Assembly: GCA_035625415.1 (NCBI GenBank)
Contig: DASPPQ010000070.1
Span: 6,052-70,051 of the forward strand
DNA length: 64,000 bases
Reading direction: 5' to 3'
From: Thermodesulfobacteriota bacterium
GTDB taxonomy: Bacteria; Desulfobacterota; BSN033; UBA1163
Within the stretch, counting starts at the first letter, position 1; the number at the start of each line of letters is the position of its first letter. Under the pieces are notes generated by a model that worked only from the letters and a program-made list of their open reading frames with translations, was not told the origin of the DNA and ran no database searches. The position numbers and the translations under genes are program-made. This document shows, in pieces, positions 1,866-31,960 of this stretch.

Positions 1866-3470
1866 TCACTTCTGAATATATTTAAGATCCCCTTTCACTA
1901 CTTTACCGGCAGGATTTCTGGGCAACGCGTCTAAAAATTCTATGTATTTGGGAATTTTATAATCTGCCAAGTGTTCTGAACAAAAATTCTTAAACTCCTC
2001 CTCGTCTGCAGTTTGTCCAGGTCTCAATACGATCGCGGCTTTCACTGCTTCACCCAAAAATTTATCAGGGACAGCCACAACGGCTACTTCTAACACGTTC
2101 GGATGCTTAGATATGACATTCTCAACTTCGAGAGAAAATATCTTTTCCCCTCCCCGATTAATCATATCCTTCTTGCGGTCAAGGATATAGAGGTAGCCTT
2201 CGTCGTCCAATTTTCCAATATCGCCTGTATGCAGCCAGCCATCGATGATCGTGGCCTTCGTCGCCTCGGGCTTTCCCCAATATCCCTTCGTGACGGTTGG
2301 GCCTCTCAGAATAATCTCACCCACACCGTTGGGGGGCAATTCTTTTCCTTCTTCGTCCACAATTTTTACATCCACCAGCGGGAGAATCTTACCTGCCGCT
2401 TCAATCTTCCGAAGCGTATCCTCATAGGGTGTGGTTGAAGCAATCCCGTCACTCTCCGTTAAACCATAACCGATGCTCAATTTAAGATGAGGAAGTCTAT
2501 TCAGAATCCCTTTGACCATCTCTTCTGTAGCAGGCGACCCACCACACATGGCTACTTTGTAGGAACTAAAATCAAAATGGTCGAACTCAGGGTGATGAAT
2601 CATTAACCAAAGGATAGTAATCACGCTGATGGTCTTGGTAATCTTTTCGGAAGACATGATCTCCAAAAAATCTTTTACCTTGAACGTTCTCACATAGACA
2701 CAAGGGATGCCGCTGAAGATATGGGAGAGCATAATTTGAGCAAGGCCCGTGATATGAAAAAGGGGGACAACACAAATGACTCGATCTTCAGGCTCGTAAG
2801 CGATAAAATCACTGATATGCATGGCCGTTGCGATAAGACTCCGGTGATACAAAACGGCCCCCTTGGGTTTCCCCGTCGTACCCGAAGTATACATAATGAT
2901 CGCATCATCTGTTTCGTCTAAGATTGTTCTTTGAAATGTCCCTTCTTGGCTTTCCTTCAACTCAGCAAAAGGAAGAACGCCCTTGGGAAGACCTGATCCA
3001 TTGAAGAATGTTTTTTCAACGGTTTTTAAGTCATTGTGGACGGCGGCAATCGATGGCCAATATTCTTGATCCACCACGAGCATTTTGCTTCCGGAATCAT
3101 TGATCTCATAAGACAATTCTTCCCCTTTGAATCGTGTATTTAAAGGGACTGCAATCGCACCTAATTTCATTAATGCAAAGAAACATAATGGGAATTCTAA
3201 CCCGATCCCTAAAAGGAGAGAAACACGATCTCCTTTTTTGACATGGTATTTTTGTAACCCTGTTGCAATTCTATTTACGATTTGATTAAATTCCTCAAAG
3301 GTTAATTTTTGATGATCGCAAATGAACCCTATACGGTTGGGGTACCGGGTGACGGTGTTCTCCAACATTTGGACGAGATGCCTTGGCCTATTTTTAAAGA
3401 TTCTCCCTCTAAAATCGGGCCATTCCTCCTCCACGATCTCCCCGCCCATCTTACTCCCCAAGCGTTTCAT
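1866..3470 (-). CDS. AMP-dependent acyl-CoA synthetase (fatty-acid/organic-acid CoA ligase)
   Basis: AMP-binding motif YTSGTTGKPKGA, GYGLTE, TGDIG..DEEGYLYILDRKKD, C-terminal PRNPAGKV. Confidence 0.9.
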   Translation of the reverse strand: MKRLGSKMGGEIVEEEWPDFRGRIFKNRPRHLVQMLENTVTRYPNRIGFICDHQKLTFEEFNQIVNRIATGLQKYHVKKGDRVSLLLGIGLEFPLCFFALMKLGAIAVPLNTRFKGEELSYEINDSGSKMLVVDQEYWPSIAAVHNDLKTVEKTFFNGSGLPKGVLPFAELKESQEGTFQRTILDETDDAIIMYTSGTTGKPKGAVLYHRSLIATAMHISDFIAYEPEDRVICVVPLFHITGLAQIMLSHIFSGIPCVYVRTFKVKDFLEIMSSEKITKTISVITILWLMIHHPEFDHFDFSSYKVAMCGGSPATEEMVKGILNRLPHLKLSIGYGLTESDGIASTTPYEDTLRKIEAAGKILPLVDVKIVDEEGKELPPNGVGEIILRGPTVTKGYWGKPEATKATIIDGWLHTGDIGKLDDEGYLYILDRKKDMINRGGEKIFSLEVENVISKHPNVLEVAVVAVPDKFLGEAVKAAIVLRPGQTADEEEFKNFCSEHLADYKIPKYIEFLDALPRNPAGKVVKGDLKYIQK

Positions 3471-3481
3471 TTGGCCTCCCT

Positions 3482-4186
3482 CTAAATCCCCAAATAAGCC
3501 TTTCTCACATGATCCTCCCCTAAAAGTTTCTCACTCTCTCCTTCCAAAATAATTCTTCCATTCTCGATGACATATCCCCTTTGAGCGGTGGAGAGGGCGA
3601 GATGCATGTTCTGCTCGACCAACAAAATCGTCATCCCTTCTTGGTTAATCCTCTTGATCACCTCAAAGAGGTTCGTGACGATCAAAGGGGCAAGCCCTAA
3701 AGAAGGTTCATCCAACATGAGGATCCGGGGAAGTGTCATTAAGCCTCTGCCGATGGCTAACATCTGTTGCTCTCCGCCACTGAGCGTTCCTGCGAGTTGA
3801 TGCTTCCTCTCCTCGAGGCGGGGAAATATGGCAAACACCTTGACTAAGTTCTCTTTCCGATGTATTTTGGCTGTCCGGATATAGCTTCCCAATTCAAGAT
3901 TTTCGAGTACGGTCATTTCTTGGAAAATCTTTCTCCCTTCGGGGATCCGGACCACTCCTTGTTTAACAATCTGGTGAGGTTCTAAACAATCAACCCGTTT
4001 ATTGAAAAAGTAAATCTCCCCCGCTGTCGGCCGTAGAACTCCAGAAAGAGTGAGGAGCAGCGTCGTCTTCCCTGCTCCATTTGCCCCTAACACGGATACC
4101 ATCTCTCCCCTTTCAATCTTCAGGGAAACGGTATGAAGGATCTGAATGTCGCCGTATCCTGCAGAAATTTGTTTCACATCAAACAA
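3482..4186 (-). CDS. livF: HAAT-family ABC transporter ATP-binding protein (LivF-type)
   Basis: Walker A GANGAGKTT, signature LSGGEQQMLAIGR, Walker B LMLDEPS. 8-nt overlap with the upstream livG-type gene. Confidence 0.9.
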   Translation of the reverse strand: MFDVKQISAGYGDIQILHTVSLKIERGEMVSVLGANGAGKTTLLLTLSGVLRPTAGEIYFFNKRVDCLEPHQIVKQGVVRIPEGRKIFQEMTVLENLELGSYIRTAKIHRKENLVKVFAIFPRLEERKHQLAGTLSGGEQQMLAIGRGLMTLPRILMLDEPSLGLAPLIVTNLFEVIKRINQEGMTILLVEQNMHLALSTAQRGYVIENGRIILEGESEKLLGEDHVRKAYLGI

Positions 4187-4904
4187 AGCGATATTTCTCC
4201 CCTAAATAGGATTTAATGACATCTGGATCCTGGGCAACCTCTCGAGGTCCTCCCTGCGCAATAATCTCTCCGAAGCATAAGACTAATATTCGATCGGATA
4301 TGGTCATTACGATTCGCATCGTGTGTTCAATCACGATGATGGTGACCCCGCCCTCCCTGATCTTGATGACCAACTCGATCATCTGCTTCTGTTCGACAGG
4401 GTTTAGACCAGCCATCACCTCGTCCAGCAGGAGAAATTTGGGTTGGGTGGCCAAACATCTAGCCAATTCTAACTGTTTCCGTTCTGCCAAGGTGAGACTG
4501 CCTGGAAGTTCATTTCTCTTTAACCATAGGCCCACAAATTCAAGGAGGCTTTCTGATTGACGATTTGCTTGCTTGATCTCTTTTCCCCGGTTGAACACCG
4601 CCGCTCTCACATTTCTCATCACACTCAGATGAGGAAAAGGTTTGACGATCTGAAAAGTTCTGCCAATTCCTCTCTTGCAAATCTGATGGGGTTTGAGGCC
4701 GACTAAACTCTCGCCTTCAAAATAAATGCTTCCTGTATCAGGAGGGAGAAAACCAGAGATGAGGTTGAATAGGGTGGTTTTGCCCGATCCGTTTGGACCG
4801 ATTAAACCCAGAATCTCCCCTCCTGCGACCTCGAATGTCACGTGGTTGACCGCCATCAATCCACCAAATGACTTGGACAGATTTTCTATTTTCAAGGATG
4901 GCAT
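4179..4904 (-). CDS. livG: HAAT-family ABC transporter ATP-binding protein (LivG-type)
   Basis: Walker A GPNGSGKTT, GIGRTFQ motif typical of LivG, Walker B LLLDEVMAG. Confidence 0.9.
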   Translation of the reverse strand: MPSLKIENLSKSFGGLMAVNHVTFEVAGGEILGLIGPNGSGKTTLFNLISGFLPPDTGSIYFEGESLVGLKPHQICKRGIGRTFQIVKPFPHLSVMRNVRAAVFNRGKEIKQANRQSESLLEFVGLWLKRNELPGSLTLAERKQLELARCLATQPKFLLLDEVMAGLNPVEQKQMIELVIKIREGGVTIIVIEHTMRIVMTISDRILVLCFGEIIAQGGPREVAQDPDVIKSYLGEKYRFV

Positions 4905-4914
4905 ATTTTTGGTC

Positions 4915-5877
4915 TCAATGTTTTTTCTTTAAACTGCTTAACCATCCGTAGATTCCGTTAGGAAGGAAAATGATCACGCCAACCAAAATGGCCCCGTAAA
5001 TCATCAGATGGACCCCGTGGTAACCACCCAATATTCCCCGGGTCACCTCTCCCAGAGGGCCCAAGACGAATGATCCGATGATGGGACCATAGACGGTCCC
5101 CACGCCTCCGACAATGGGCCTCAAAAAAATTTCAATAGAGGTGTCGACACCGAAGGTGACCGGTGGGTCGATGTAAAGGAAATACTGGGCATAGAAGGTT
5201 CCTCCAAGGGCAGTGAGAAAGCCACTGATCAAAATCGCCAAAAGTTTATATGAAAATGTATTGACCCCTATTGCCTCGGCTGAATCCTCGTCTTCCCGGA
5301 TGGCGGCAAGATAGTCGCCGATCTTTCCCGTGTCAATCCACCGGGCAACCCAGAGAACACCGATGAACATCAGTAAGATCACAAAGTAGTAGAAAATCTT
5401 CGATTCATGCTGAAAAGAGAGGGGGGCATTTCCTTTAAGGGGAATGAGGATGCCCATCGCCTTTCCGGTCACATCCAGATTGAGAGAGATCAAACGCAAC
5501 AATTCAGCGAACGCTAATGTCGCCAGGGCAAAGTAAGGGCCTCTCAGTCCATAATGGAAACAAAGAGAGCCGATCAACAGTCCTAATAACATTCCCAGAA
5601 GACCCCCCAAGACCATTCCAATCCACGGACTGATGTTCCAATTGACGAAGGCCAATGTCGAGGCGTAAGCCCCGATTCCAAAGAAGGCAGCGTGCCCAAA
5701 AGAAAACTGGCCAGCATAACCTCCCAAGATGTTCCAACTCGTTCCCAAATATCCGTAGAAGAGAATCATGATAAGAACATGAACAAAATACGAGGGGAGT
5801 AAAAAGGGCAGCAAAATAGAGATCAAGGTAAGGCCGAACCAAAAGAAAAGTACCTTTGGAATTCCATTTCTAGACAT
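4915..5877 (-). CDS. livM: HAAT-family ABC transporter permease (LivM-type)
   Basis: Polytopic membrane protein with GGYAGQFSFGHAAFFGIGAY and REDEDSAEAIG motifs characteristic of LivM. Confidence 0.85.
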   Translation of the reverse strand: MSRNGIPKVLFFWFGLTLISILLPFLLPSYFVHVLIMILFYGYLGTSWNILGGYAGQFSFGHAAFFGIGAYASTLAFVNWNISPWIGMVLGGLLGMLLGLLIGSLCFHYGLRGPYFALATLAFAELLRLISLNLDVTGKAMGILIPLKGNAPLSFQHESKIFYYFVILLMFIGVLWVARWIDTGKIGDYLAAIREDEDSAEAIGVNTFSYKLLAILISGFLTALGGTFYAQYFLYIDPPVTFGVDTSIEIFLRPIVGGVGTVYGPIIGSFVLGPLGEVTRGILGGYHGVHLMIYGAILVGVIIFLPNGIYGWLSSLKKKH

Positions 5878-6742
5878 GCTTTTTCCCGAACAACCCTTTC
5901 GGTCTGAGCAGAAGCGTGAGAATGAAGATGGAATAGATGGGCACTTGCTTCAAGGAGCCAGGAAGCAAAACTTCGCCAAGAGATTCTGCGATTCCTACAA
6001 TGAGAGCTCCAAAAAATGCTCCCCAAAAACTTCCCAGCCCACCCAGGACGACAATCACAAAGGCTGTAATGACGAAGACCATGCCGACCGTAGGGGTGAT
6101 ATAAAAAAAGGGGGTGATCATGGTGCCTGCAGCAGCGACACAGGCGGCGCCAATTCCAAAGGCGACGGAGTATATGATTTTCCTGTGGATGCCGATCACA
6201 TGTGCTCCTTCTCGATCCTGGGAAATAGCTCGAATTGCTTTTCCAGAATCGGTTTTGGTCAAGAAGAGGTAGAGCAGTAAGGTCATCGTAAGGGCCGCTC
6301 CAAAAGCGATCATCCGGGGAGTACTGAACATCAACTTGTGTATATGCATGGCTCCTGCTAAGGTTGTCACCTGTAACATCCGATAGTTCGGGCTCCATAG
6401 GAATAAAGCTAAGTTCTCGAGGAAGAGGGCGATCCCTAAGGTTAAAAGAAGCTGATTGTGTTCAGGCCCCTCGATGATCCGATTGATCAGACCATACTGG
6501 ATGAGGAACCCAACCACGAAGAGAGCGCACATACTGATAACTAATGAGAAATAGGGATGGATATCCAAGAAGATCGAAACCCAATAAGTGAAATACATAC
6601 CAAGCATCATAAAAGCGCCATGAGCAAAATTGATGATCTTCATCACCCCAAAGATCAAGTTCAGACTGACTGCGACCAATGCATAGACTCCCCCCATGAG
6701 GAGTCCGCTGATGATGGCTTGCGCCAAAATGTTGGTATCCAT
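5870..6742 (-). CDS. livH: HAAT-family ABC transporter permease (LivH-type)
   Basis: The ORF track gives 5870..6874, which would overlap the SBP gene. The ATG at 6742 yields the canonical LivH N-terminus MDTNILAQAIISGLLMGGVYALVA..NFAHG. Confidence 0.85.
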   Translation of the reverse strand: MDTNILAQAIISGLLMGGVYALVAVSLNLIFGVMKIINFAHGAFMMLGMYFTYWVSIFLDIHPYFSLVISMCALFVVGFLIQYGLINRIIEGPEHNQLLLTLGIALFLENLALFLWSPNYRMLQVTTLAGAMHIHKLMFSTPRMIAFGAALTMTLLLYLFLTKTDSGKAIRAISQDREGAHVIGIHRKIIYSVAFGIGAACVAAAGTMITPFFYITPTVGMVFVITAFVIVVLGGLGSFWGAFFGALIVGIAESLGEVLLPGSLKQVPIYSIFILTLLLRPKGLFGKKHV

Positions 6743-6773
6743 CCCTACCCTCTCTGCAGCTAGCCAAACCAGG

Positions 6774-8033
6774 TCATTTACGATCTTTCCACTTGGGCAT
6801 CGGCCAAATCGGTCTGCTGGCAGCATACTCTTCAGGGAAAATGGAACGACGCTTCCCATTTTGAACCTGAGCAATCACCGTCCTCGCATCTTTATTCTGC
6901 CCGTCCTCGCCAAAGAGTATAGCGCAGGGTTGGATGTTCCCTTTTTCTCCTGGCTTCAAATTGGTCTTCGTAAGAGCCTCCCGTATTTTTTCACGATCCG
7001 TTGAGGCTGCTCTCTCAAGGGCATCCTTCAGCACGTAAACACACGTGTAGCACATGGAGGCGACGCAGTCCATTCCAACGCCATTCCTCTTAATAAAATT
7101 CTCATTGGCCTCTTTGACTCCAGGAATCTTCAAGTCATCTTCCCAGTTCTCACAAACAGAGACGTATTCTGTCAATTTCCCCAACGCTTTAATGTAGGCA
7201 TCATCTTGATGTCCTCCACCCATGCCAATGATGGCCTGCGTGTTGAAGTCAAGATCTTTCATCGTTCTTGTTGAGAGAATGGCGTCAGAGATGTAGGCAA
7301 CCGTTAAGGCCACATCCGGGTTCGCCGCTTTTAGCTTTGAAATAATACCCGTAAGGTCTGAGGTGGCATGAGGATAGGGAAGGTCGGCTACAATGGAATA
7401 CCCTTTCTCCGCAGCCAAACCTTTCCAGGCTTTTGCACTGGATTGACCCCAAAGGGTATCTTCATAATATATCCCGATATTCTTTATCTTGATCCCCCTT
7501 TTTTTCTGAATATAGGCCAAATATTCGTATTCATCCCGAATATGCCATGCATCGGTAGCAATGGGTCTGAAGGTATACTTAAACCCGCGCTGTGTGATCG
7601 ACTCGGCTACGCCAACGCCCACGATGAAAGGGGTTTTATACTTTTCAGCTACCTGGGTGGTAGCAAAAACGACGGCACTTTGAAAGGCTCCCATGACGGC
7701 AACGGCACCCCTTTGTATATGTTTTTCTGTCTCTGCCATTCCCACCTCCGGTTTTCCTTCGCTATCCCCGAGCATGATTCTTAATCTCGCACCGCCTAAG
7801 GATTTGATTCCACCGGTTGCGTTGATCTCATCCACTGCCTGTTCATAGCCTCTTCGATCACTCAACCCCAGGGGAGCCAAAGGACCGGTCAGAGGTTCAA
7901 CCACACCAAACTTTACTTCTTCTACAGAATGGGCTAATCGAGGGAATCCAGAGAGGGTAACAACAGCTCCCAATGCGCCCATTCCTTTTATGAATTCTCT
8001 TCGATTTACACCTCTTTTAACCCTCTTCTTCAT
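6774..8033 (-). CDS. periplasmic substrate-binding protein, LivK/type-I PBP family, Tat signal
   Basis: Twin-arginine leader NRREFIKGMGALGAVVTLSG, then the type-I PBP pattern (FGVVEPLTGPLAP..G). Ligand not inferable from sequence. Confidence 0.85.
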   Translation of the reverse strand: MKKRVKRGVNRREFIKGMGALGAVVTLSGFPRLAHSVEEVKFGVVEPLTGPLAPLGLSDRRGYEQAVDEINATGGIKSLGGARLRIMLGDSEGKPEVGMAETEKHIQRGAVAVMGAFQSAVVFATTQVAEKYKTPFIVGVGVAESITQRGFKYTFRPIATDAWHIRDEYEYLAYIQKKRGIKIKNIGIYYEDTLWGQSSAKAWKGLAAEKGYSIVADLPYPHATSDLTGIISKLKAANPDVALTVAYISDAILSTRTMKDLDFNTQAIIGMGGGHQDDAYIKALGKLTEYVSVCENWEDDLKIPGVKEANENFIKRNGVGMDCVASMCYTCVYVLKDALERAASTDREKIREALTKTNLKPGEKGNIQPCAILFGEDGQNKDARTVIAQVQNGKRRSIFPEEYAASRPIWPMPKWKDRK

Positions 8034-8106
8034 ACAAACCTCCTTTCAAAATAGAATGAGTGAGCTAAATGGTATACAGCCTCTTACCCTGTTAAGATGA
8101 TTCCCA

Positions 8107-9282
8107 TCACCCCCTCTCAATCACCATGGCGAACCCCAACCCTCCCCCAACGCAAAGGGTAGCAAGCCCCAGATGAAGATTCCTCTTGGCCATTTCATGA
8201 ATGAGCGTCACGACCAGCCGGCATCCTGTTGCCCCTACAGGGTGGCCCAAGGCAATGCCACTTCCGTTGACGTTGACAATCTCCCTATTTAATCCCAACT
8301 CTTTCTCGCAGGACAAATACTGTGCAGCAAAGGCCTCATTGATTTCTATGAGCTGAATATCCTTGAGGGAAAGACCTACCTTTTTTAATACCTTCTGCGT
8401 GGCAGGAACAGGTCCGATCCCCATATAGGATGGGTCCACCCCGACGATCGCATAACCCAATATCTTGGCCAAAGGCTTTAGCCCCATTTCTTTCGCTTTC
8501 TCTTTCGACATCAATAGAGTCATCGCAGAGGCATCATTGAGTCCTGATGAATTTCCTGCTGTCACGGTTCCACCTTTTTTAAAGGCCGGAGGCAGCTTAG
8601 CCAGCTTCTCCAGCGTCGCATCAGGTCTCGGATGTTCATCGGTATCAACAATCTTTGTCTCTCCTTTTTTCTGAAGGATGGGGACAGGAGTAATCTCGTC
8701 CTTAAACCTTCCCTTTTGAATCGCTTTACAAGCTCTCTGTTGGCTGATCAACGAAAACTGATCCTGTTCTTCCCTCGAAATCCCATACTTCTCCGCCAGA
8801 TTTTCTGCTGTTAGCCCCATTCCAGCACCAATCGGGTACTCCTGCATAGCTCTCCATAGCATATCGATCAATTGCCCATGCTGAAGACGCTGCCCCCAAC
8901 GGGTCGTCGTAAGGATGTAAGGAGCATTGCTCATGCTTTCAACCCCTCCTGTCAGAACCACACCCACATCCCCATCTCGAATCGCCTGGGATCCACAGAT
9001 CATCGCCTGCATTCCGGACGCGCAATTGACCCCAATCGTGAAGCCGGGCGTCTCAAGGGGAAGACCACATTTGACTGCTGCGATTCGCGCAACATTTTGA
9101 TCCAGCGGTTCAAAACAGTTTCCCATGATTACCTGCTCCACGGACCTCTTTTCGATACCAGCCTGCTGAAGAGAGGAGTCAATGACCGCCATCGCCAAAA
9201 AAGTTGCTGGGACATCCTTTAATGACCCGCCAAAATCTCCAATGGGTGTTCTCGTCGCACTCACGATCACAACATCTTTCAT
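8107..9282 (-). CDS. acetyl-CoA C-acetyltransferase (thiolase II family)
   Basis: VNCASGMQA active-site Cys region, NEAFAAQ, GHPVGATGCR and CVGGGLG C-terminal thiolase signatures. Confidence 0.9.
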   Translation of the reverse strand: MKDVVIVSATRTPIGDFGGSLKDVPATFLAMAVIDSSLQQAGIEKRSVEQVIMGNCFEPLDQNVARIAAVKCGLPLETPGFTIGVNCASGMQAMICGSQAIRDGDVGVVLTGGVESMSNAPYILTTTRWGQRLQHGQLIDMLWRAMQEYPIGAGMGLTAENLAEKYGISREEQDQFSLISQQRACKAIQKGRFKDEITPVPILQKKGETKIVDTDEHPRPDATLEKLAKLPPAFKKGGTVTAGNSSGLNDASAMTLLMSKEKAKEMGLKPLAKILGYAIVGVDPSYMGIGPVPATQKVLKKVGLSLKDIQLIEINEAFAAQYLSCEKELGLNREIVNVNGSGIALGHPVGATGCRLVVTLIHEMAKRNLHLGLATLCVGGGLGFAMVIERG

Positions 9283-9340
9283 CGTTTCTCCTTTCTCGAT
9301 CCTTAAAAATAGGTTTTCATTTCTTTAAAAATGCCCTCAG

Positions 9341-10489
9341 TCATAACTTCCCTAATAACTCACGGGCAATCGTATTCTTTTCAATCTCCTTCGTCCCTTC
9401 GTAGATTTCCACAATCTTTGCATCCCTGTAGAAGCGTTCGATATCGTAATCCGCGATATACCCGTATCCACCATGGAGCTGAAGGGCCTCATTGGTCACT
9501 TTGACTCCAATCTCTCCGGCTAAATATTTGGCGATGGAAATCAGTTTGGGATCCACCTTCCCATGATCGAGCATCCATGCTGCTTGATAGCAGAGGATCC
9601 GAGCTGCTTCGACCCAGGTAGCCATCTCCGCGATCTTGAATTGGACTGCCTGAAAAGCGCCAAGGACTTGCCCGAACTGTTTCCTCTTCTTCACATATTG
9701 GGCGGCTTTATCCAGAGCGCCTTGTGCAACGCCGACACCCTGAGAGGCGGCGATCACTCGGTTGATGTTGAAGAGTTGCATGATTTGTGAGAACCCTTCT
9801 CCTTCTTTCATTCCGATGAGGTTTTCCTTCGGAACTCTCACGTCATTGAGCCGAATCTCTGCGGTGTCGGACGCCCTGATACCCATCTTCCCGGTAATCT
9901 TTAAGGCACTGAATCCCGGACGATCTGTCTCCACAAGGATCACCCCGAACCTCTTGAGCCTCGATTCTACCTCCGGATTCACCTGACAGAATACGGCGAG
10001 ATAATTGGCAATACTTCCATTGGTGATGAATTGTTTCGATCCGTTGATCACAAAGAAATCCCCGTCTCTTTTTGCTAAGGTTAAAATGGACAGGATATCG
10101 CTTCCGGCATCCGGTTCTGTGATGGCAGTCCCCATAATCGCTTTTCCCTTTGTAAGAGGCGGGAGGTATCTCCGTTTCTGTTCGTCCGTGCCGTAAAGTT
10201 GAATCAATTCAGAGCCGAAGGCCGTCAGCAAAATATTCCCGCATCCAGGATCCACACGCCAAAATTCTTCCATCACCAGTGCAAATTCAAGGAACCCTAA
10301 ACCAAGGCCTCCATATTCTTTTTTGAGAAAGAGACCGATAAATCCCAGTCCGCAGGCCTTCTCCCAAAGGTCCTTTGGAAACTCCTCCCGGCGGTCATAT
10401 TCGCGAGCAACCCCCGGAAACTCTCCTTCAGCAAACTCACGTGCAGCCGCCCGTATTTGTTTTTGCCGATTTGTCAGTTCAAAATCCAC
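9341..10489 (-). CDS. acyl-CoA dehydrogenase
   Basis: 382 aa. ITEPDAGSD, QFITNG, C-terminal IYEGTKEIEKNTIAREL (catalytic Glu region). Confidence 0.9.
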   Translation of the reverse strand: MDFELTNRQKQIRAAAREFAEGEFPGVAREYDRREEFPKDLWEKACGLGFIGLFLKKEYGGLGLGFLEFALVMEEFWRVDPGCGNILLTAFGSELIQLYGTDEQKRRYLPPLTKGKAIMGTAITEPDAGSDILSILTLAKRDGDFFVINGSKQFITNGSIANYLAVFCQVNPEVESRLKRFGVILVETDRPGFSALKITGKMGIRASDTAEIRLNDVRVPKENLIGMKEGEGFSQIMQLFNINRVIAASQGVGVAQGALDKAAQYVKKRKQFGQVLGAFQAVQFKIAEMATWVEAARILCYQAAWMLDHGKVDPKLISIAKYLAGEIGVKVTNEALQLHGGYGYIADYDIERFYRDAKIVEIYEGTKEIEKNTIARELLGKL

Positions 10490-19445: not shown

Positions 19446-19565
19446 ACCCTCCCCTTTTAACGGGGGAGGGTGGGGTAGATGTCCAGATCATGTCCCCCCT
19501 CACCTCAATCCTCTCCCCTGCCTTCGCCGAAGCGGCTTCGCACAGGCAGGCTCCGAGGGGAGAGG
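19446..19565. repeat. composite GC-rich palindromic repeat (two hairpins)
   Basis: accctcccc/ggggagggt (19446-19471) and cctctcccc...ggggagagg (19510-19565), with the inner pair tgcc/ggca. The ORF-track ORFs at 19479 and 19490 are read through it. Confidence 0.6.
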
Positions 19566-19720
19566 AGGCACTGGGTGGAGTATTTTCTGAAAAAGAGCCG
19601 CGAAGGTTCTTCTCTTCTGCTCGGGTTAGGACGCATGGTGGATGCCTACCAAAGGCAACACACGGGGAGAATGAGAAGGTTAATAAATATCGATGTATAG
19701 CGTTGGAGGAATAGAAACTT

Positions 19721-20404
19721 TTATTTCTCTTTTGGGGGATCTCCGGTCTCGGTCGATAAAAGGTAAGCTAAGTTGTCTAAGATCGTGGTGAAAAAGACAT
19801 CCTTCACTACAAAACCAGTTGGGACGGCAACTTGTGCCGGCGCGAAGTTAAGAATTCCTCTCACCCCTGCCTCCGCCAAAAGATTGGCTACCCCCTGAGC
19901 CTCTGAAGGAGGGGTTGTGATGACCCCGATCTCAATCTTCCTTTCCTTTACCACCTCTTTGAGCCGGTTGATGTGAAAGATCTCGGCTGGCTTGCCCAAC
20001 TTTTCCGAGACTCTTCCAATCACCCGAGGGGGGTCGATATCGAAGGCCGCAACAATCTTATAATTCTTCTTTAGAAAATCCTTATAAGATAGGAGGGCAG
20101 CGCCCAAATTTCCGATGCCGATCAGCGCCATCTTCCACTCTTTATTCGATCCCAATATCTTCTTAATATTATTGAGCAAATCCTCCACATAATAACCCAC
20201 ACCCCGAATCCCAAATTCACCGAAGTAGGCCAGGTCCTTTCTTACCTGTGCAGCATTCACAACGCATTTCTTGGCCAGTTGAGCAGAAGAAACAACCTTC
20301 TCTCCCCTTTCGTCCATCTCTTCCAAACACCGGGAGTACCTTGATAATCTCCTGATGGTGGCCTCGGGAATTTTCTTGTACTTCAGTTTTGTGACCCCTT
20401 TCAC
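19721..20404 (-). CDS. rex: redox-sensing transcriptional repressor Rex
   Basis: IPEATIRRLSRYSRCLE winged-helix region and Rossmann motif ALIGIGNLGAALL. The start is uncertain: the in-frame GTG at 20404 is preferred over the ORF-track TTG at 20446, because that TTG is part of a TTGACA -35-like hexamer and the operator lies between the two. Confidence 0.8.
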   Translation of the reverse strand: MKGVTKLKYKKIPEATIRRLSRYSRCLEEMDERGEKVVSSAQLAKKCVVNAAQVRKDLAYFGEFGIRGVGYYVEDLLNNIKKILGSNKEWKMALIGIGNLGAALLSYKDFLKKNYKIVAAFDIDPPRVIGRVSEKLGKPAEIFHINRLKEVVKERKIEIGVITTPPSEAQGVANLLAEAGVRGILNFAPAQVAVPTGFVVKDVFFTTILDNLAYLLSTETGDPPKEK

Positions 20405-20406
20405 AA
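20389..20406. promoter_or_regulatory. Rex operator TTGTGA-N6-TCACAA
   Basis: Plus strand reads ttgtga-cccctt-tcacaa, a perfect match to both half-sites of the Rex consensus TTGTGAA-N4-TTCACAA, located at the 5' end of rex. Confidence 0.65.
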
Positions 20407-20574
20407 ATTTTGAGAAAAAAATATTAAATTCTAATGCTTTTGTCAAGCATATCTTGAAGATGCTTTGCCCCTCGTTCTTACGCTCATGGTTTTCGACCGG
20501 CTCGACAGCGCGAAGGCTTCGGCACGAGATCAGGCCGTGAATTCAGACGAACACAACACCTTCGAGGGCTGCCT

Positions 20575-22758
20575 TCACATCCTTCCCTGTGCAATGTCTT
20601 GCTTCCTCCTGGCGATCTGTTCGATTGCCTCGTTCAGCCTGCGATTGGCAAATTCAAATAGCTCTTCCGCATACTCCAGATTGTGGGCTCCCTTTCCATT
20701 CTTGGCCAAATTGTAATTGAACTCCGCTTCTCCATACAACTTTCGATAGACAAAGGTGTGACCTCCCCGGCGATCAATCCGATCAATTTCTTCTTTGACC
20801 TGAGCCAATTTGGGGTCCAGCTCCCTCAGCATCTTCTCGGAGGTTGCCTTCCATCGGACAGCCATCTCCCCATAGCTCTGGTCATGACACTCGATGCAGC
20901 GTTTCTTGATCGCATCGAACGTCCCCTTCTTCTTGGCCAAGACATTCTGGTGACAATCAACACATTCTACCACACCCAGCTTGTTGCTCGGCCTCTCCTT
21001 GACACCGATGCCTCCCTTTCCCTGGATGAGTCTTTTTATGTTCACATGGCAATCTTCGCATTTGATTTTCTTAATCCCCCTCCCGTGGTGGCATCCAGCA
21101 CAAATTTTCATGAAGGTTTTGCCGTGATTTTCGCGCGGAGGGTGGCAATCCAGACACTTCTGCCCGTTACCTACCACGTGGGTCGCATGAGAAAATTTGA
21201 TATCGTTAAAAGGAACGGTCCGTCTCTCTATGCCAACATGACAGAGGCTTGTACAACTCATTCGGGTTTGAAATTCCTGTGGTTTGTAATCCTTATCGAT
21301 AATCGCCAACGCTTGTTCCGTCTTATTGCTCGCTGCGTTGAGGAGCTTGAAGGCATATTCGATATTGTGAACTCCCTTGCCCAGAAGGACGAAGCTATAA
21401 TTATGTCGGGCTTCGTTAAGAAGATTTTGAGCCCTTTTAAAAGGGGGGGTGCTTCCATGCGCCTTTTCAAACTCGTACAGTGCGTTCTGAACATTAAAAA
21501 CCCTCTGGTTCGTTTCATTCTCGGCTCTGGCAAGGAGGGCCTTCCATTGCTTCAGGGTTTCATCGAATCCCTCTCCATGGCAGTCGACACAGGCCTCACC
21601 GATGGCTCTTTCAACATAATTCGAGGTATGAAGTGCAGCCCGGCTTTCATCGCCCCTCCGATGGCAGGCGATACAGTCCACATTCGTCGTAAACATGAGG
21701 CTGGGAGAGTCCGGGACGCCAATCCCTCCGGTCCCGCGGTACAACTCTCTTGGACCGAGATGCATCTCCTTGCTATGGCATTTGTCACAGTTGGAGGGGG
21801 TATGAGTAATGGTGGGAATCTGTCCAATCTCATGGCGAAGAAAAGTATGGCAGCTTGAGCACTCGATCTTATGGTCGGTCACATGCTTCTGATGTATGAA
21901 TTGCGAGGTATACTTGGTCGTCAGTAAGACAGGCTCATTATGGCATTCGACACATTTTCCCTCCGGTACATGGCCGTCTCCCTGAACCACGCTGAGATGA
22001 CATTTCTCACAGGTTACCCCTCTCGCGATATACTTTCTGTGATTGAAGTTCCAACCTTTGACCTGAATATCCCCTTTCGGCTCGACATGGCAGGAAGTGC
22101 AGCCCCCGATGGCACACGAAATACACTCCTCCTCCCCTTTTGGACCCGCCTTATAGTAGTGACAGATGAAGCAGTTGATTTCGTGAACCGTGAGATGCAA
22201 CCCCTGAACGAGTTGGGCGTGGCAGCTTGCGCAGCGGAGGTTCATCCCCCTTCTCAGCTCGCCCAAATGTTTTCCGTGTGAGAAGGCCACATTCTTATAG
22301 ATCATATTCCCCTGGAGGTCATCGATCTTATGACATCCCTTTTGGAGGCAGCTCGTATCGCTAATCTGTGCGTGAGGCGTGCTCGGCCTCTTCCCCGACA
22401 AGAAGTAAGCCAGCGACACCTGGCCGTCCACCCATTTGCCCCTGAGATGGTTAAGAAATCCGGGCTCATAATGGCATTTCGTGCAGGCCACATGCCGATG
22501 ACTGGAGGTCCTCCACGAGTCCATATAGACATTCATCTGGTGACAGAGGCCGCAGAAGGTAGAGCTCTCCGTAAACTTGAGAAGACCTACGAGGATGACA
22601 AGAAAAACAAGGATACAAAAAACGAGGAATACCTTGATCGCCTTGAAATGAGCTTGAGTGCCTTTCTTCGCCTCATTGAAGAAATCGATCCAAAAGATCT
22701 TGACCAAGTCATAAAGATTTCTTATAGTTCCCATATGAACGCTCCCACCAAACCCCAA
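20575..22758 (-). CDS. membrane-anchored multihaem cytochrome c, 16 CxxCH, NapC/NirT-like N-terminal module
   Basis: One TM helix (VFLVFCILVFLVILVGLL), then FCGLCHQM...CTKCH. I counted 16 canonical CxxCH sites plus CLQKGCH and CTSLCH variants. Confidence 0.85.
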   Translation of the reverse strand: MGFGGSVHMGTIRNLYDLVKIFWIDFFNEAKKGTQAHFKAIKVFLVFCILVFLVILVGLLKFTESSTFCGLCHQMNVYMDSWRTSSHRHVACTKCHYEPGFLNHLRGKWVDGQVSLAYFLSGKRPSTPHAQISDTSCLQKGCHKIDDLQGNMIYKNVAFSHGKHLGELRRGMNLRCASCHAQLVQGLHLTVHEINCFICHYYKAGPKGEEECISCAIGGCTSCHVEPKGDIQVKGWNFNHRKYIARGVTCEKCHLSVVQGDGHVPEGKCVECHNEPVLLTTKYTSQFIHQKHVTDHKIECSSCHTFLRHEIGQIPTITHTPSNCDKCHSKEMHLGPRELYRGTGGIGVPDSPSLMFTTNVDCIACHRRGDESRAALHTSNYVERAIGEACVDCHGEGFDETLKQWKALLARAENETNQRVFNVQNALYEFEKAHGSTPPFKRAQNLLNEARHNYSFVLLGKGVHNIEYAFKLLNAASNKTEQALAIIDKDYKPQEFQTRMSCTSLCHVGIERRTVPFNDIKFSHATHVVGNGQKCLDCHPPRENHGKTFMKICAGCHHGRGIKKIKCEDCHVNIKRLIQGKGGIGVKERPSNKLGVVECVDCHQNVLAKKKGTFDAIKKRCIECHDQSYGEMAVRWKATSEKMLRELDPKLAQVKEEIDRIDRRGGHTFVYRKLYGEAEFNYNLAKNGKGAHNLEYAEELFEFANRRLNEAIEQIARRKQDIAQGRM

Positions 22759-22882: not shown

Positions 22883-23545
22883 TTGGGAAGCCATTTAGTG
22901 AAAAGATTTCTTGGACTCAACCGAAGATGGGTCTTCTTGTCAATCTCCTCATTGTGTCTGATCCTCTTGCTCGGAAAGCTCGATTCTCTTTTTGCTCAAG
23001 TGGAAGAAAACCCCCTGGAAAAGAGGGAGCAAAAACTAAAGGATTTTCGCGAAAAGAGGGACCGGTTCTTTAAGGAAAACCCTCGATCCCCCTTAAAGGA
23101 GAAGGATCGGAAAGAATTTAATGGCCTTATTTACTACACGGTCGACCTTAAGTATGCGATGACCGGATTCATCGAAAAATACCCTACCGAACCTAAGCCT
23201 CTGTACGTCACGCTTCCCACAAACAAAGAAGCGGGCAGAAAATACGTGAAATACGGCCGATTCAAATTTAAATTGGATGGGAAAGGATACGTGCTCCAAA
23301 TTTACCGACCCTTAGCGAGCGACGAGCTTTTCCTTCCCTTCAAGGATAAGACTTCAGGGATAGAAACCTATGAGAAGGGACGCTATCTCTATATCGAGGC
23401 GATGCCCGGAGGAAGGGTGTTGATCGATTTCAATCGCGCCTACAATCCGTTCTGCCACTTTAATGAGAAATATACCTGCCCCTTTGCCCCGGAGGAGAAC
23501 CGGCTTGACATCGCCATTCGGGCGGGGGAAAAGCGCTTTCGATAA
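22883..23545 (+). CDS. DUF1684-like secreted protein
   Basis: Signal-like N-terminus. C-terminal YNPFCHFNEKYTCPFAPEENRLDIAIRAGEK matches my recollection of the DUF1684 signature. Start uncertain (TTG 22883 or GTG 22898). Confidence 0.5.
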   Translation: MGSHLVKRFLGLNRRWVFLSISSLCLILLLGKLDSLFAQVEENPLEKREQKLKDFREKRDRFFKENPRSPLKEKDRKEFNGLIYYTVDLKYAMTGFIEKYPTEPKPLYVTLPTNKEAGRKYVKYGRFKFKLDGKGYVLQIYRPLASDELFLPFKDKTSGIETYEKGRYLYIEAMPGGRVLIDFNRAYNPFCHFNEKYTCPFAPEENRLDIAIRAGEKRFR

Positions 23546-23674
23546 CGGGTTAAACGCGGAAAATGAATTCCCTGAGAAAAGGCGCGCGCTTTTGAAATCC
23601 GAAAGAATCATCCTTTTGGGAGTAACCAGCCTGGTTTTCAATTTATCTTTATCTTCTTTCTCTTTCTCTTCTCC

Positions 23675-23759: not shown

Positions 23760-25730
23760 TCAAACAAGAAATTCCCAAGCAATCAGGAAGACGCAGACAA
23801 GCCCGATGGCCAGCATGGCAAATCCCATGGTTGTTGAGAAGAGGTCTGTTCCCACGCTGGGGTATTTATCTCGATAGGTCTCCAATCTCTTCTCCGCCAG
23901 CAGGCGATGATACTGTTCCTGCCGCTCCTCCACCAGTTCGTATTTTGGGATTCTTCCTGTGAAGATCACCGTATCCATTGGAAACTTCGAAGGCCGAAAA
24001 TGGGTGTTAAAGAAATGGACTGTGAAGATGAAGCCCGAAGCCAGCAGCGCTTCATCCGAGTGAACGATCGTTGCGATATTGAGGATCCATCCAGGCAAAA
24101 AGATGGTGAAGAATTGTGGAAGCCAGAGCATCAATCCTGAGAGCCCGATAGCGAACATTCCCCAGAAGACAGCGAGAAAATCGAATTTTTCCCAATAAGT
24201 CCACCGGTCGAACTGGGGTTTCGGTCCTTTGTTAAAGAACCAACGGATCATCCCGATGATGTCTTGAATGTCTTTCCAACGAGGACAGAGTGAATCCGGG
24301 CCGAAAAGTCTCTGCAAGGGATTGGGATTCCCCGGCAGCTTCTTGAAGAAGAGGAAATAGACGATGTAGGCCATGGTCGTTCCAAAATAGGCAAACGTGA
24401 TGGCGGCACAAGTGCGATGAATCAAACCCGCGCTCCTGGCCCCTCCTAAGAAGTGCATCAGACCAATGGCCCAGGGGGCATGGGAAAATTTTAATGGAAG
24501 ACCGGTCAGGACGAGCCCGATAAAAGTCACCATCATCGTGAAATGGAGCACGATATCAAAAGACCTAAATCGGCGATAGATATGGCCTGCTTCAGCCGGT
24601 TTTACATGCTGCGGGAAGAAAACTCCCTTGGCCCTCAGTTCCCTCTTCTCCCAGAAGTCCTTTCGCCACCAAAGAAGGGTGTGAAACCAAAAGATTCCAA
24701 ACACGGAAACGAGGAGGCCGGTCATCAAAACGAATGTTCCGTAGAGCACGGGCTCCCTCTCCGGATCTTTATGGGTCGCATGGGCAATCCATTTCACGAA
24801 GTTGGCATTGGCCCTTGTGTGGCACTTGCCACAGGTCTCTACCAGCCGCTTTTCCGAGATGAGAGATTTTGGATTATCCGGAGGCAGAATGTTGTGAAAC
24901 CCATGGCAGTCCGCACAACCCGCCACCAATCTCGGGTAACCCAGATGCTCCACCTTTCCATGATAACTTTCGTAGTAGGTTTGAGTGGCAATCAGAAAAA
25001 CCTTGTTTCGCTCCATCATCTCCTTGTCTGCATGACATTTCTGACAGACCTCTGTATGGAACTCCTTCCGGAATTCCACCGTCTTGGGCTCGTCCCCTTT
25101 CAGTAAAGGAATTTTATGGAGGCCGTGGCAATCGCTGCAGGTGGCGGAATCTGGATTTCCGTCGAGGACCGCTTTGCCGTGGACGCTTTGAGAATAACCG
25201 TCATCCGAGTGGCAGGTCGTACATGTCTGGATCACCCGGACTTTATCTTCCTTCCACGGAGTCAACGCGTGGATGTCTTTATGGCAGTCTTTACACTGGA
25301 TGTCGTTAATAAAATGAGCGCTTGCATAATGCTCCGTCCCTTCCTTCTTATGACATCGATGGCAGGTAACCGGTTCTGCATGAATTCTTGCCCCTTTTGT
25401 TCTGGCATGGGCTTTGACGTCTGTGATGTCGTAGTGGCAACTGTTACACGAGTTGGCCCCATGAACGGATTGGGCAAACTTCCTTTCGCTGATCTTAGTG
25501 TGGCAACCCAAGCATTCAGAGTTATCAATACACTCATAGCAAAATTCCCGACCCTTGACGATGAACTTTTCCCCTTTTTTGGCGGGTTCGGAAGGTTTGG
25601 TCACCGCAGCGGGGTTAGCACCTCCTTTTTCTAGACCGGATGTCACTGCCCACAATGCGCCTGAGCCTAAAGAGAACCAAACAGAGATGCTGAGACAAAT
25701 GAGGATTGATCTTTTAAACTTCGCTTTCAT
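23760..25730 (-). CDS. fusion of a 9-haem periplasmic cytochrome c and an integral-membrane b-type-like domain (CbcL-like)
   Basis: Signal peptide from the ATG at 25730. 9 CxxCH in the first ~330 aa, then about 6 hydrophobic helices with conserved His residues ([42 protein letters not shown]). Confidence 0.8.
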
Positions 25731-25887
25731 AATTCCCCGAAAATTCAAAAAATGACTCCGCCCTCTTGAAATGAGAATGAGCGGTATTCCGTCAAAATTT
25801 AAAGAAAATTAAAATTTTGGGATTTTCATTGCGGGAAAAGTGTGATTTTTTTAACACAATCAAGAATTGAAGTCAATATGACCAAAT

Positions 25888-26715
25888 TTAATCGCTTTTG
25901 CAATCTTCGTTCAAGCCAACCAAGGTTGACCAGATCTTCCCTTGTAATCTCTGAACAATCTTCAGAGGCTTCTCTTTCAATCTCCCTTCAATCTCTTCCG
26001 CATCTTTTTCAAAAATCCCTGAGAGGATGATCCATCTTTTTTTCAAGAAAGCCTTTTTCTTTAACAGGGACTCGATGACTTGAAGATGGATGTTGGCGCA
26101 AACCAAATTTGCCTCCTCGTTCGCAAAATCCTCTGCTTTTCCCCTTCTCACCTCAATCCGTTGAGATTCCCCGTTGGACAATACATTTCGTAACGCCGTC
26201 TCTACGGCCAGTTCGTTGCAGTCGATGGCAAGCACCTTCTCGGCTCCCCACTTTGCAGCGCCCAGAGCGAGGATTCCTGAGCCCGTTCCAAGGTCGAGAA
26301 CTTTCTTTGGCTTCTCTTTTTGATAAATATCCCAAATCGCTTGAAGACACGTTCGCGTCGTCGGATGATAACCTGTTCCGAAAACCACGCAGGGATCTAA
26401 GCGAACCAAGACCTGGCCCTCTTCAACCTTTGCACGTTCCCAAGGGGGACAGATGACAAGGTTACCCACCTGAAAAGGTCTCAATTCTTCTCCGGCCTGC
26501 CAGGTCATGTAGTCCAGGGTGTTCTTTGCGAGGAGAGGGTATCCCTTCTTTTTGATCAATAACTCCACCTCCTCATCGTGGGGTTGAGAAAAGAAAAGGA
26601 AGGAGATTTCCCCTTCATTCCAACAGCCGATGAAGTCCTGCTTAAAAACATCCCTTGAATCCGAAATCGGTCCGGAAATTTCGTAGATGTGAAGGTTTTG
26701 GTAGGGAATCTTCAT
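25888..26715 (-). CDS. prmA: ribosomal protein L11 methyltransferase-like SAM-dependent methyltransferase
   Basis: DPCVVFGTGYHPTTRTCL and VLDLGTGSGILALGAAKWGAEKVLAIDCNELAV. The ATG at 26715 is preferred because the upstream part of the ORF is translated repeat DNA. Confidence 0.7.
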   Translation of the reverse strand: MKIPYQNLHIYEISGPISDSRDVFKQDFIGCWNEGEISFLFFSQPHDEEVELLIKKKGYPLLAKNTLDYMTWQAGEELRPFQVGNLVICPPWERAKVEEGQVLVRLDPCVVFGTGYHPTTRTCLQAIWDIYQKEKPKKVLDLGTGSGILALGAAKWGAEKVLAIDCNELAVETALRNVLSNGESQRIEVRRGKAEDFANEEANLVCANIHLQVIESLLKKKAFLKKRWIILSGIFEKDAEEIEGRLKEKPLKIVQRLQGKIWSTLVGLNEDCKSD

Positions 26716-26960
26716 TGATAACTTTAGGTTTAGGTCAAGGTTAAGGTCAAGAAATGCATCTTTTCTCAACCTTAGCCTCAGCCTCAACCTTATCAGGACA
26801 TTTGATCACATTTGACACTGTTCTTGTAACACAAAGCTTTCCCTCTTGACAATTTTGGAGGAAATATTAATTTATATTTTAGGTTCGGACACGGACCCTG
26901 CCTGCCTGCCGGCAGGCCCTAAACCTAGTGTCCTGCGTCAGAAGTCCCTTTACTTTGAAT

Positions 26961-27048
26961 GTCATTCCGGGCTTGACCAAGCTTGCCCCGTGCTTGACAC
27001 GGGGGAATCCAATGATTTCAGCTGGGTTCGTGCTTTTGCAGGAATGAC
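26961..27048. repeat. MITE/REP-like nested-palindrome element, copy 1 (GTCATTCC...GGAATGAC termini)
   Basis: gtcattccgggcttgacc...gggggaatccaa...gcaggaatgac. Confidence 0.7.
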
Positions 27049-27135
27049 AGCTTCTGAACTTATGTAAAGAAGTGTTGGACGCACTACACTGGCATAGTAC
27101 AGGGGAGGCGGGGACGCGGGACACAGGTTTTAATT

Positions 27136-31192: not shown

Positions 31193-31960
31193 ATGAGCTA
31201 CAACAACATCACACTGACGACGAAGGATTTTGTGAGCACCATTACGCTTAACCGTCCCCCGACCAACTCTATAAACTTCGGTATACGCGAAGAGCTGGAT
31301 CGAGCGATCACCGAGTTAGAGAAGAGCAAGGATACCAGGGTGGTGATCATCACCGGTGCGGGTGAAAAGGGCTTCAGCGCAGGCATGGACGTGTCGGACA
31401 TAGCGAACATCGAGAAAGGGCCGAATGGCAATGATGTATTCAACCGCATCGAACGGTTCGGCAAGCCGGTCATCGCTGCCATCAACGGATATGCTCTGGG
31501 CGGCGGATGCGAGCTTGCGCTGGTATGCCATTTCCGGCTTATGACGGACAATCCCAAGGCGGTCATCGGCTGCCCGGAAGTGAATCTGGGCATTACGCCC
31601 GGCTGGGGCGGCATACAGCGCCTCCCGCGGCTTCTGGGCAAGCCGAAGGCGCTCGACATGATATTGTTCAGCAAAAGGTTGTCGGGGCAGGAAGCCTTAG
31701 CGATTGGCCTTGTGGACCGCGTGGTCCCCGCAGCAGAATTGATGAAGGAGGCCATGGCCTTCGCACTGACGCTGACCAAGCGGCCGCCTCTTGCCGTAAA
31801 TGCGGTGCTTACTGGTATGAGCCTGGGACTTGAGAAGGGCCTCGAAGAAGGCATCCGCGTCGACCGGGAGTGGTCAAGAAAGCTCGCCCAGAGTCAGGAT
31901 GCACGGGAAGGATTCACTGCATTCTTTGAGAGGCGTGAACCGGTATTCAAGGGGGAATAG
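31193..31960 (+). CDS. enoyl-CoA hydratase/isomerase (crotonase family)
   Basis: ITGAGEKGFSAGMD, AAINGYALGGGCELALVC, PEVNLGITPGWGG. GC-rich relative to its neighbours. Confidence 0.9.
   Translation: MSYNNITLTTKDFVSTITLNRPPTNSINFGIREELDRAITELEKSKDTRVVIITGAGEKGFSAGMDVSDIANIEKGPNGNDVFNRIERFGKPVIAAINGYALGGGCELALVCHFRLMTDNPKAVIGCPEVNLGITPGWGGIQRLPRLLGKPKALDMILFSKRLSGQEALAIGLVDRVVPAAELMKEAMAFALTLTKRPPLAVNAVLTGMSLGLEKGLEEGIRVDREWSRKLAQSQDAREGFTAFFERREPVFKGE

Follow-up and report, generated by a model that had tools for sequence, protein, structure and literature searches.

The genomic stretch analyzed here, a 64,000-nt segment of the Thermodesulfobacteriota bacterium assembly GCA_035625415.1 (contig DASPPQ010000070.1, positions 6,052 to 70,051 of the forward strand; hereafter, the window), carries on its minus strand a gene, referred to below as cbcL, for a multihaem cytochrome c fused to a membrane domain. 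In the open reading frame (ORF) listing, this gene is given as 23760..25748 (minus strand), with a TTG start and a product of 662 aa. Because the starts of 23 database homologues and the upstream regions of ten related loci align to an ATG located six codons after this TTG, we take the gene to span 23760..25730 and to encode 656 aa. The product is very probably a member of the CbcL/MtrH/MtoC family, that is, a single inner-membrane polypeptide exchanging electrons between the menaquinone pool and the periplasm. The gene and its parts are as follows:

23760..25730, minus strand: cbcL-like gene, 656 aa, ATG start, nine CxxCH motifs, collinear with Geobacteraceae CbcL orthologues
25644..25730, minus strand: predicted signal peptide, residues ~1-29 (MKAKFKR-hydrophobic-LWA), read from the sequence; helix 7-36 (662-aa numbering) in the AlphaFold model
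24756..25643, minus strand: periplasmic nine-haem c-type domain, residues ~30-325, with 9 CxxCH motifs and 8-10 conserved distal His (PF14537 and PF14522 matches; alignments)
23763..24755, minus strand: six-helix membrane domain, residues 326-656, with helices 2-5 assigned to an FdnI/HydC-type dihaem b bundle and with invariant His at 350, 396, 438, 557, 572 and 577 (alignment, profile and fold searches)

The first-pass annotation of the window, made from the nucleotide sequence, had described a signal peptide, exactly nine CxxCH motifs and about six hydrophobic helices, all of which were borne out, with exact coordinates, by a regular-expression count, hydropathy analysis and the helices of an AlphaFold model. 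In particular, the N terminus reads as a Sec signal peptide, and the CxxCH motifs are found at residues 79, 101, 129, 152, 176, 204, 235, 278 and 306 (662-aa numbering), with no CxxxCH, CxxxxCH or CxxCK variants detected anywhere in the 662-aa sequence by the same count. The first half of the protein matches the multihaem cytochrome c domains PF14537 and PF14522, and all nine haem motifs are invariant in an alignment of 14 diverse homologues and align with the motifs of 11 nine-haem homologues. Eight distal His residues (H90, H139, H154, H184, H205, H257, H279 and H317) are likewise invariant across the 14 homologues, a number that rises to ten non-motif His in the periplasmic half within the close clade; no conserved Met was found in this half in the same alignments. 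CbcL itself also has ten conserved non-motif His, which have been taken as evidence for bis-His ligation (PMC9129911). When the full-length protein was compared with PDB sequences, the outcome was limited to a weak multihaem match (28pb_A, E 2.5e-5). An additional CxxC motif (CYEC) and a Pro/Lys-rich linker of ~40 residues separate the signal peptide from the first haem motif (25500-25560, minus strand; residues ~64-70 of 656) and are limited to the closest subclade, with YPYEV at this position in the more distant aligned homologues and no extension in Geobacteraceae.

The second half of the protein contains six membrane helices according to hydropathy and the AlphaFold model (residues 333-373, 396-420, 437-467, 518-542, 553-583 and 632-661), and the connecting loops are alternately Arg/Lys-rich (cytoplasmic) and uncharged (periplasmic), which, by the positive-inside rule, fits a periplasmic location of the N-terminal domain. 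PF01292 (prokaryotic cytochrome b561, the family to which HydC and FdnI belong) matches residues 393-578 of the full-length protein. With the membrane half scanned by itself, the score is 31.6 bits, above the gathering cut-off of 30.1, and the family is also matched by the isolated membrane domains of 20 of the 31 diverse homologues included in our alignment of this half (A2; 46-91% identity, several phyla). A search of all PDB sequences with the A2 profile yielded a sole match, chain C of 1KQF (Escherichia coli FdnI), with a marginal E value (0.018), and the same chain was the top match when Foldseek was run against the PDB with the AlphaFold model (marginal E 0.044, target TM-score 0.57), all other matches being noise. 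The model was built on a shallow alignment of 24 sequences, with homologues at least 59% identical, and was used only for helix positions and for ranking Foldseek matches. Four His residues, H396, H438, H557 and H572 (656-aa numbering), are invariant in all 31 sequences and, in the A2 profile alignment, coincide with the FdnI haem ligands H18, H57, H155 and H169, respectively. Topology puts H396 and H572 close to the cytoplasmic face of the membrane and H438 and H557 close to its periplasmic face, the same arrangement as in FdnI. The invariant H350, in helix 1, and H577, at the end of helix 5, are also placed at the cytoplasmic face and may form part of the quinone site; together with the four putative ligands, they are invariant in the 14 diverse homologues. 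Given that three tests, each of them marginal, share one template and that the ligand His are conserved, we accept the predicted FdnI/HydC-type dihaem b core as established. Thus, the similarity of the membrane half to HydC/FdnI and the conserved His pairs, on which the first-pass annotation had staked its reading, were both recovered, the former with PF01292 above its cut-off and with marginal FdnI profile and Foldseek matches.

The likeness to FdnI extends to the four-helix dihaem b bundle and its four aligned ligand His, whereas the identity between the membrane half and FdnI is only ~13%. The cbcL product has one additional helix on each side of the bundle and a long conserved cytoplasmic loop (FGPDSL...), and the two His of the last bundle helix are spaced by 15 residues, compared with 14 in FdnI. 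Furthermore, FdnI docks onto an Fe-S subunit, whereas the b domain of the cbcL product is fused to a multihaem c domain.

Relatives of the cbcL product are encoded in at least 592 genomes, scanned as one genome per species. The closest of these (75-90% identity; loci L001-L011) come from uncultured metagenome-assembled genomes labelled Thermodesulfobacteriota, delta proteobacterium or Syntrophaceae, followed by proteins from Geobacteraceae and Desulfuromonadales that are 49-54% identical and collinear over residues 74-661, with two long sequence motifs shared with Geobacteraceae CbcL. Among the latter are the proteins of Geomonas propionica (L021) and Trichlorobacter thiogenes (L049), both species listed with CbcL homologues in the supplement of PMC9129911, from which, its alignment being garbled in machine reading, only the shared motifs and the species list were used. 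In the 14-sequence alignment, identity to the Geomonas protein is 50% for the c domain and 54% for the membrane domain. Like CbcL of Geobacter sulfurreducens (GSU0274, WP_010940947.1) and its orthologues, the window protein combines a signal peptide, nine CxxCH motifs, about ten distal His and six helices with what is predicted to be an FdnI/HydC-like dihaem b core. The CbcL architecture of nine c-haems joined to a HydC/FdnI-like dihaem b module, as proposed in the first pass, therefore holds, given 49-54% identity to the Geobacteraceae orthologues, the PF01292 match and 1KQF_C as the top structural match. The differences concern the placement of the window protein in a separate clade, the Pro/Lys-rich N-terminal extension with CYEC, the gene neighbours and the host, an uncultured peat lineage of Thermodesulfobacteriota.

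The same family of c-haem/b-type fusions includes MtrH of Rhodoferax ferrireducens and MtoC of Dechloromonas and Gallionella, which are only ~35% identical to CbcL and are encoded in mtrAB/mtoAB porin-cytochrome clusters (PMC6295460). The window lacks mtrAB-like genes, and its protein is likened to MtrH and MtoC on the published description of the family. CbcBA, ImcH and CymA/NrfH are, as the cbcL product is proposed to be, inner-membrane quinol:cytochrome c oxidoreductases and occupy the same position in the chain. However, CbcBA consists of two polypeptides, although CbcB is also HydC/FdnI-like (bioRxiv 10.1101/2021.04.15.440034), and ImcH, CymA and NrfH have c-haems only, with NapC/NirT-type anchors, a type represented here by the neighbouring 16-haem protein. 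The first-pass annotation treated a CbcL outside Geobacter as something of a surprise, but it is not new, because 138 CbcL/MtrH/MtoC homologues have been reported in 15 phyla, with sequences from Syntrophus grouping with Geobacter CbcL (PMC6295460). A CbcL-type protein in a peat bacterium labelled Syntrophaceae is thus an ordinary further member of a known, widespread family.

The genes next to cbcL bear on its possible partners:

22883..23545, plus strand: DUF1684 gene, between the two cytochrome genes (PF07920, E 6e-42; synteny)
23556..23674, plus strand: remnant of an UshA-like tetrahaem selenoprotein gene, 119 nt of the 5' end with signal-peptide codons, ATG changed to GCG (BLASTN against L001)
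20575..22734, minus strand: 16-CxxCH cytochrome, 719 aa from ATG, with one N-terminal membrane helix, an NrfH/NapC-like module (CGLCHQM), a central OcwA-like module and c7/c3-like C-terminal haems
19721..20386, minus strand: rex, probably starting at the TTG that follows the Rex box by two bases

This arrangement confirms the neighbourhood map of the first pass, namely, a 16-haem protein, an opposite-strand gene in between, and rex. The NrfH/NapC-type module of the 16-haem protein carries the CxxCHxM signature and matches NrfH (64 bits; PDB 2J7A), and the centre of the protein resembles the Thermincola surface reductase OcwA (PDB 6I5B, E 7e-14); two of its motifs, CLQKGCH and CTSLCH, are atypical. 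The gene order ABC-F, Zn-ribbon, prmA, cbcL, DUF1684, 16-haem gene, rex, aminotransferase and M20 peptidase is maintained in L001-L011, with the exception of L010, in which the 16-haem and DUF1684 genes are missing and cbcL alone is kept.

A third gene stands between cbcL and the 16-haem gene in most of the close relatives (L001-L007 and L009), as it also does in the distant L013-L016 and L029. Of these copies, the four that were scanned (L001, L013, L014 and L015) match the NCBIfam family NF041198, 'UshA-like (seleno)protein', with 297-420 bits; the encoded protein consists of a metallophosphoesterase/SoxB-like N-terminal part and four C-terminal CxxCH motifs, and the L001 copy (6597-8225, minus strand) contains an in-frame TGA in the motif EPCG-U. 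The family has been catalogued as a selenoprotein of unknown function (PMC13188914). In the window, the remnant of this gene begins 11 nt after the DUF1684 stop codon, and ~1.5 kb is missing relative to L001 (L001 6597-8106; BLASTN). An assembly artefact can be rejected, given that independent peat metagenome contigs span the deletion junction and that the missing segment has zero coverage at a likeness of 85% or more, the flanks being at ~25x. In the peat metagenomes containing the window strain, no form other than the deletion was seen. The selenoprotein gene is also absent from L008 and L011, which have different intergenic sequences. The three genes are linked, with varying order and strand, in lineages in which CbcL is only 51-57% identical, namely, Deferrisomatales (L013) and Ca. 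Tharpella (L014-L016 and L029), whereas the Geobacteraceae loci lack both the 16-haem and the selenoprotein neighbours. Such recurrent linkage in varied order and orientation suggests a functional module. Conversely, cbcL remains intact in the window strain despite the missing selenoprotein gene, so that CbcL is not strictly dependent on the selenoprotein.

The regulatory features identified at the locus are as follows:

25848..25876, minus strand: promoter-like site of cbcL, TTGACT, 17 nt, TGnTAAAAA (upstream-region alignment of L001-L011)
25841..25858, minus strand: conserved palindrome TGTGTTAAAAAAATCACA, overlapping the -10 element of cbcL (upstream alignment)
20389..20406, minus strand: Rex operator TTGTGAAAGGGGTCACAA, one mismatch, overlapping the rex ribosome-binding site

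The promoter-like site, which a consensus promoter scan did not pick up, is conserved in the relatives and is followed by a leader of ~110 nt and a GGGGG ribosome-binding site; cbcL is monocistronic, with a putative promoter of its own. The palindrome TGTGTTAAAAAAATCACA is conserved or nearly so in L001, L002, L003, L005 and L011. Its spacing, TGTG-N10-CACA, fits neither a Rex site nor a CRP site (TGTG-N8-CACA). When the region was searched for the Rex operator consensus TTGTGAA-N4-TTCACAA with up to two mismatches, the only site obtained was that preceding rex itself, which is conserved in all eight close relatives examined and implies autoregulation of rex. The ORF listing starts rex at a TTG at 20446, but the true start is probably another TTG, located two bases after the Rex box. 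At the same threshold, neither cbcL nor the 16-haem gene is preceded by a Rex site, be it in the window or in the eight relatives, and Rex control of either gene is therefore set aside as unsupported. The adjacency of rex is itself conserved, but the redox tuning through Rex that had been put forward in the first pass comes down to this adjacency.

Beyond cbcL and the 16-haem gene, no other multihaem cytochrome genes are present in the 64-kb window, the remainder of which encodes acyl-CoA synthetase, thiolase, acyl-CoA dehydrogenase, ABC binding proteins, GroEL and similar proteins (Pfam); the window is ordinary chromosome rather than an electron-transfer island. Of the broader proposal of a respiratory or extracellular electron-transfer module, what stands is the CbcL-type gate; the extracellular role is unsupported, with no further cytochrome or porin-cytochrome genes in the window. 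Genes at 1866-10489 and 31193-31960 code for acyl-CoA synthetase, thiolase, acyl-CoA dehydrogenase and branched-chain-type ABC binding proteins (Pfam), with a possible enoyl-CoA hydratase-like protein read by eye at 31193-31960, and these fatty-acid beta-oxidation genes fit a Syntrophales-like lifestyle. Rfam and tRNA scans of the window gave no match. GC-rich palindromic repeats in two intergenic regions (~19480-19570 and ~26890-27100) have a depth of 360-790x in a peat metagenome, compared with ~25x for the flanks, and many contigs break there; these are probably repetitive extragenic palindromic (REP)-like or miniature inverted-repeat transposable element (MITE)-like repeats common to many genomes or copies.

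Peat metagenomes contain up to 97% of the cbcL 31-mers, and three peat metatranscriptomes contain 44-61%. Metatranscriptome contigs that match the window exactly or almost exactly cover parts of cbcL (e.g., 24470-25269; 99-100% identity for cbcL), the 16-haem gene and the DUF1684 gene; these contigs are strandless and provide only a crude measure of abundance. The adjacent prmA gene (25908-26441) is not covered by any metatranscriptome contig despite a DNA depth equal to that of cbcL, which argues for real transcription rather than DNA carry-over. Thus, cbcL appears to be transcribed in peat in situ.

According to the data, the signal peptide exports the N-terminal half, with its nine covalently bound c-haems and conserved distal His, and the linker helix 1 takes the chain back to the cytoplasm. 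Helices 2-5 then form the FdnI/HydC-type bundle, with H438 and H557 at the position of the periplasm-side haem and H396 and H572 at that of the cytoplasm-side haem, and the sixth helix ends the protein. In the mechanism proposed here, menaquinol would be oxidised at the membrane domain, probably at a site near the cytoplasm-side haem, where H350 and H577 lie. The electrons would travel by way of the two b-haems to the nine c-haems and from there to soluble periplasmic cytochromes or partner enzymes, and so to low-potential acceptors in peat, for instance Fe(III) or humic substances. Electron flow might also run the other way, as proposed for MtoC. The role of the family is described as that of a quinol oxidase or a quinone reductase (PMC6295460, PMC5322298). 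In Geobacter, CbcL is needed for respiring acceptors at or below about -0.10 V (PMC5322298), and its periplasmic domain, with a potential of ~-194 mV, can reduce PpcA (PMC5322298, PMC9129911, PMC6295460). More speculatively, if the quinone site faced the cytoplasm, as it does in FdnI, oxidising quinol would entail charge movement against the membrane potential, with little energy conserved, which would suit an outlet operating near the thermodynamic limit.

Several observations weigh against the assignment of the window protein as a CbcL-type gate. The similarity to FdnI is statistically marginal in each single test (E 0.018 for the profile search, E 0.044 for Foldseek and, for PF01292 on the full-length protein, 26 bits, just under the gathering score), and the AlphaFold model is poor, with a mean predicted local distance difference test (pLDDT) score of 54. 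The CbcL references were Geomonas and Trichlorobacter genome loci in place of GSU0274 itself. A rough neighbour-joining tree without support values places the window clade outside the CbcL of Geobacteraceae and Desulfuromonadales, forming, with L012-L016 (including L013) and L029, a sister group to them; strict orthology to GSU0274, in the sense of membership in the same clade, was not recovered, a result that we regard as soft. The gene neighbours of the window clade likewise differ from those of Geobacteraceae CbcL: the 16-haem NrfH-fusion, DUF1684 and rex in the window, joined in the relatives by the UshA-like selenoprotein. PpcA-like, porin-cytochrome and nanowire genes were not found in the 64-kb window, and the protein and its subfamily are known only from sequence and a predicted model. 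Given the separate clade and the different gene neighbours, the physiological partner and acceptor may differ from those in Geobacter.

The linkage with the two neighbours raises the possibility that the window protein, while of the same family, serves a dedicated periplasmic enzyme system and not mineral or electrode respiration. It would link the quinone pool with two partners, the UshA/SoxB-like tetrahaem selenoprotein and the NrfH-anchored 16-haem cytochrome, in a module partly decayed in the window strain through deletion of the selenoprotein gene. This possibility, which we consider the lesser one, draws on the occurrence of the three genes within a few kb in the close clade (L001-L007 and L009), on their linkage at 51-57% identity, on the lack of either neighbour in the Geobacteraceae loci and on the OcwA-like centre of the 16-haem protein. 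However, the close-clade linkage may be mere shared ancestry, and the UshA-like family has no known function (PMC13188914). Moreover, despite the loss of the selenoprotein, cbcL and the 16-haem gene are both intact and apparently transcribed in the window strain, and L010 has kept cbcL alone; together, these observations argue for a CbcL function independent of those partners. In its full form, the proposal would be that a distinct CbcL subfamily, an NrfH-anchored 16-haem cytochrome with an OcwA-like core and an UshA/SoxB-like tetrahaem selenoprotein constitute an undescribed respiratory module, the selenoenzyme of which was recently lost in the peat strain, an idea that we advance only tentatively.

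Two other alternatives to a CbcL-type outlet for menaquinol concern the direction of electron flow and the identity of the protein. FdnI, the template of the membrane half (1KQF), is itself a quinone reductase, and the cbcL product might similarly feed the menaquinone pool with electrons from the periplasm, supplied by reduced humics, by extracellular donors or by a syntrophic partner, in the manner proposed for MtoC. Fe(III) reducers and Fe(II) oxidisers alike possess the family, and the two directions are not told apart by any sequence feature (PMC6295460). This direction seems improbable nevertheless, considering that the window protein is ~50% identical to Geobacteraceae CbcL, compared with the published ~35% identity between CbcL and MtoC/MtrH (PMC6295460), and that the beta-oxidation genes of the host, an anaerobic peat member of the Thermodesulfobacteriota, suggest a need for electron sinks, not donors. 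Many homologues are named as cytochrome b subunits of formate dehydrogenase or hydrogenase in the automatic annotation of the Joint Genome Institute (JGI), and the domain-level matches to PF01292 and TIGR01583 (FdnI) agree with such names. For the cbcL product, this identity is highly implausible: the b domain, which has two extra helices, forms one polypeptide with a nine-haem periplasmic cytochrome, and no formate dehydrogenase or hydrogenase catalytic genes, including fdnGH-like ones, adjoin cbcL in the window or in the close-clade loci compared. The JGI name of formate dehydrogenase subunit, in particular, was rejected, with TIGR01583, the gamma subunit family, at 22 bits, far under its cut-off of 115.85, and no fdnGH nearby. 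The CbcL-type quinone-pool-to-periplasm gate thus remains our preferred assignment.

Although knowledge of the CbcL/MtrH/MtoC family itself is unchanged by these results, they add a confidently assigned CbcL-type gate between the quinone pool and the periplasm to an uncultured peat lineage of Thermodesulfobacteriota labelled Syntrophaceae, and support the idea that fatty-acid-oxidising peat anaerobes are able to pass electrons on to acceptors in the periplasm or outside the cell, for example humics, Fe(III) or syntrophic partners. A more useful lead comes from the relatives, in which linkage with the UshA-like tetrahaem selenoprotein and the NrfH-fused 16-haem cytochrome is conserved. If these proteins do form a respiratory module, the window strain, in which the two membrane cytochromes are kept and apparently expressed, would be a natural knockout for its dissection.

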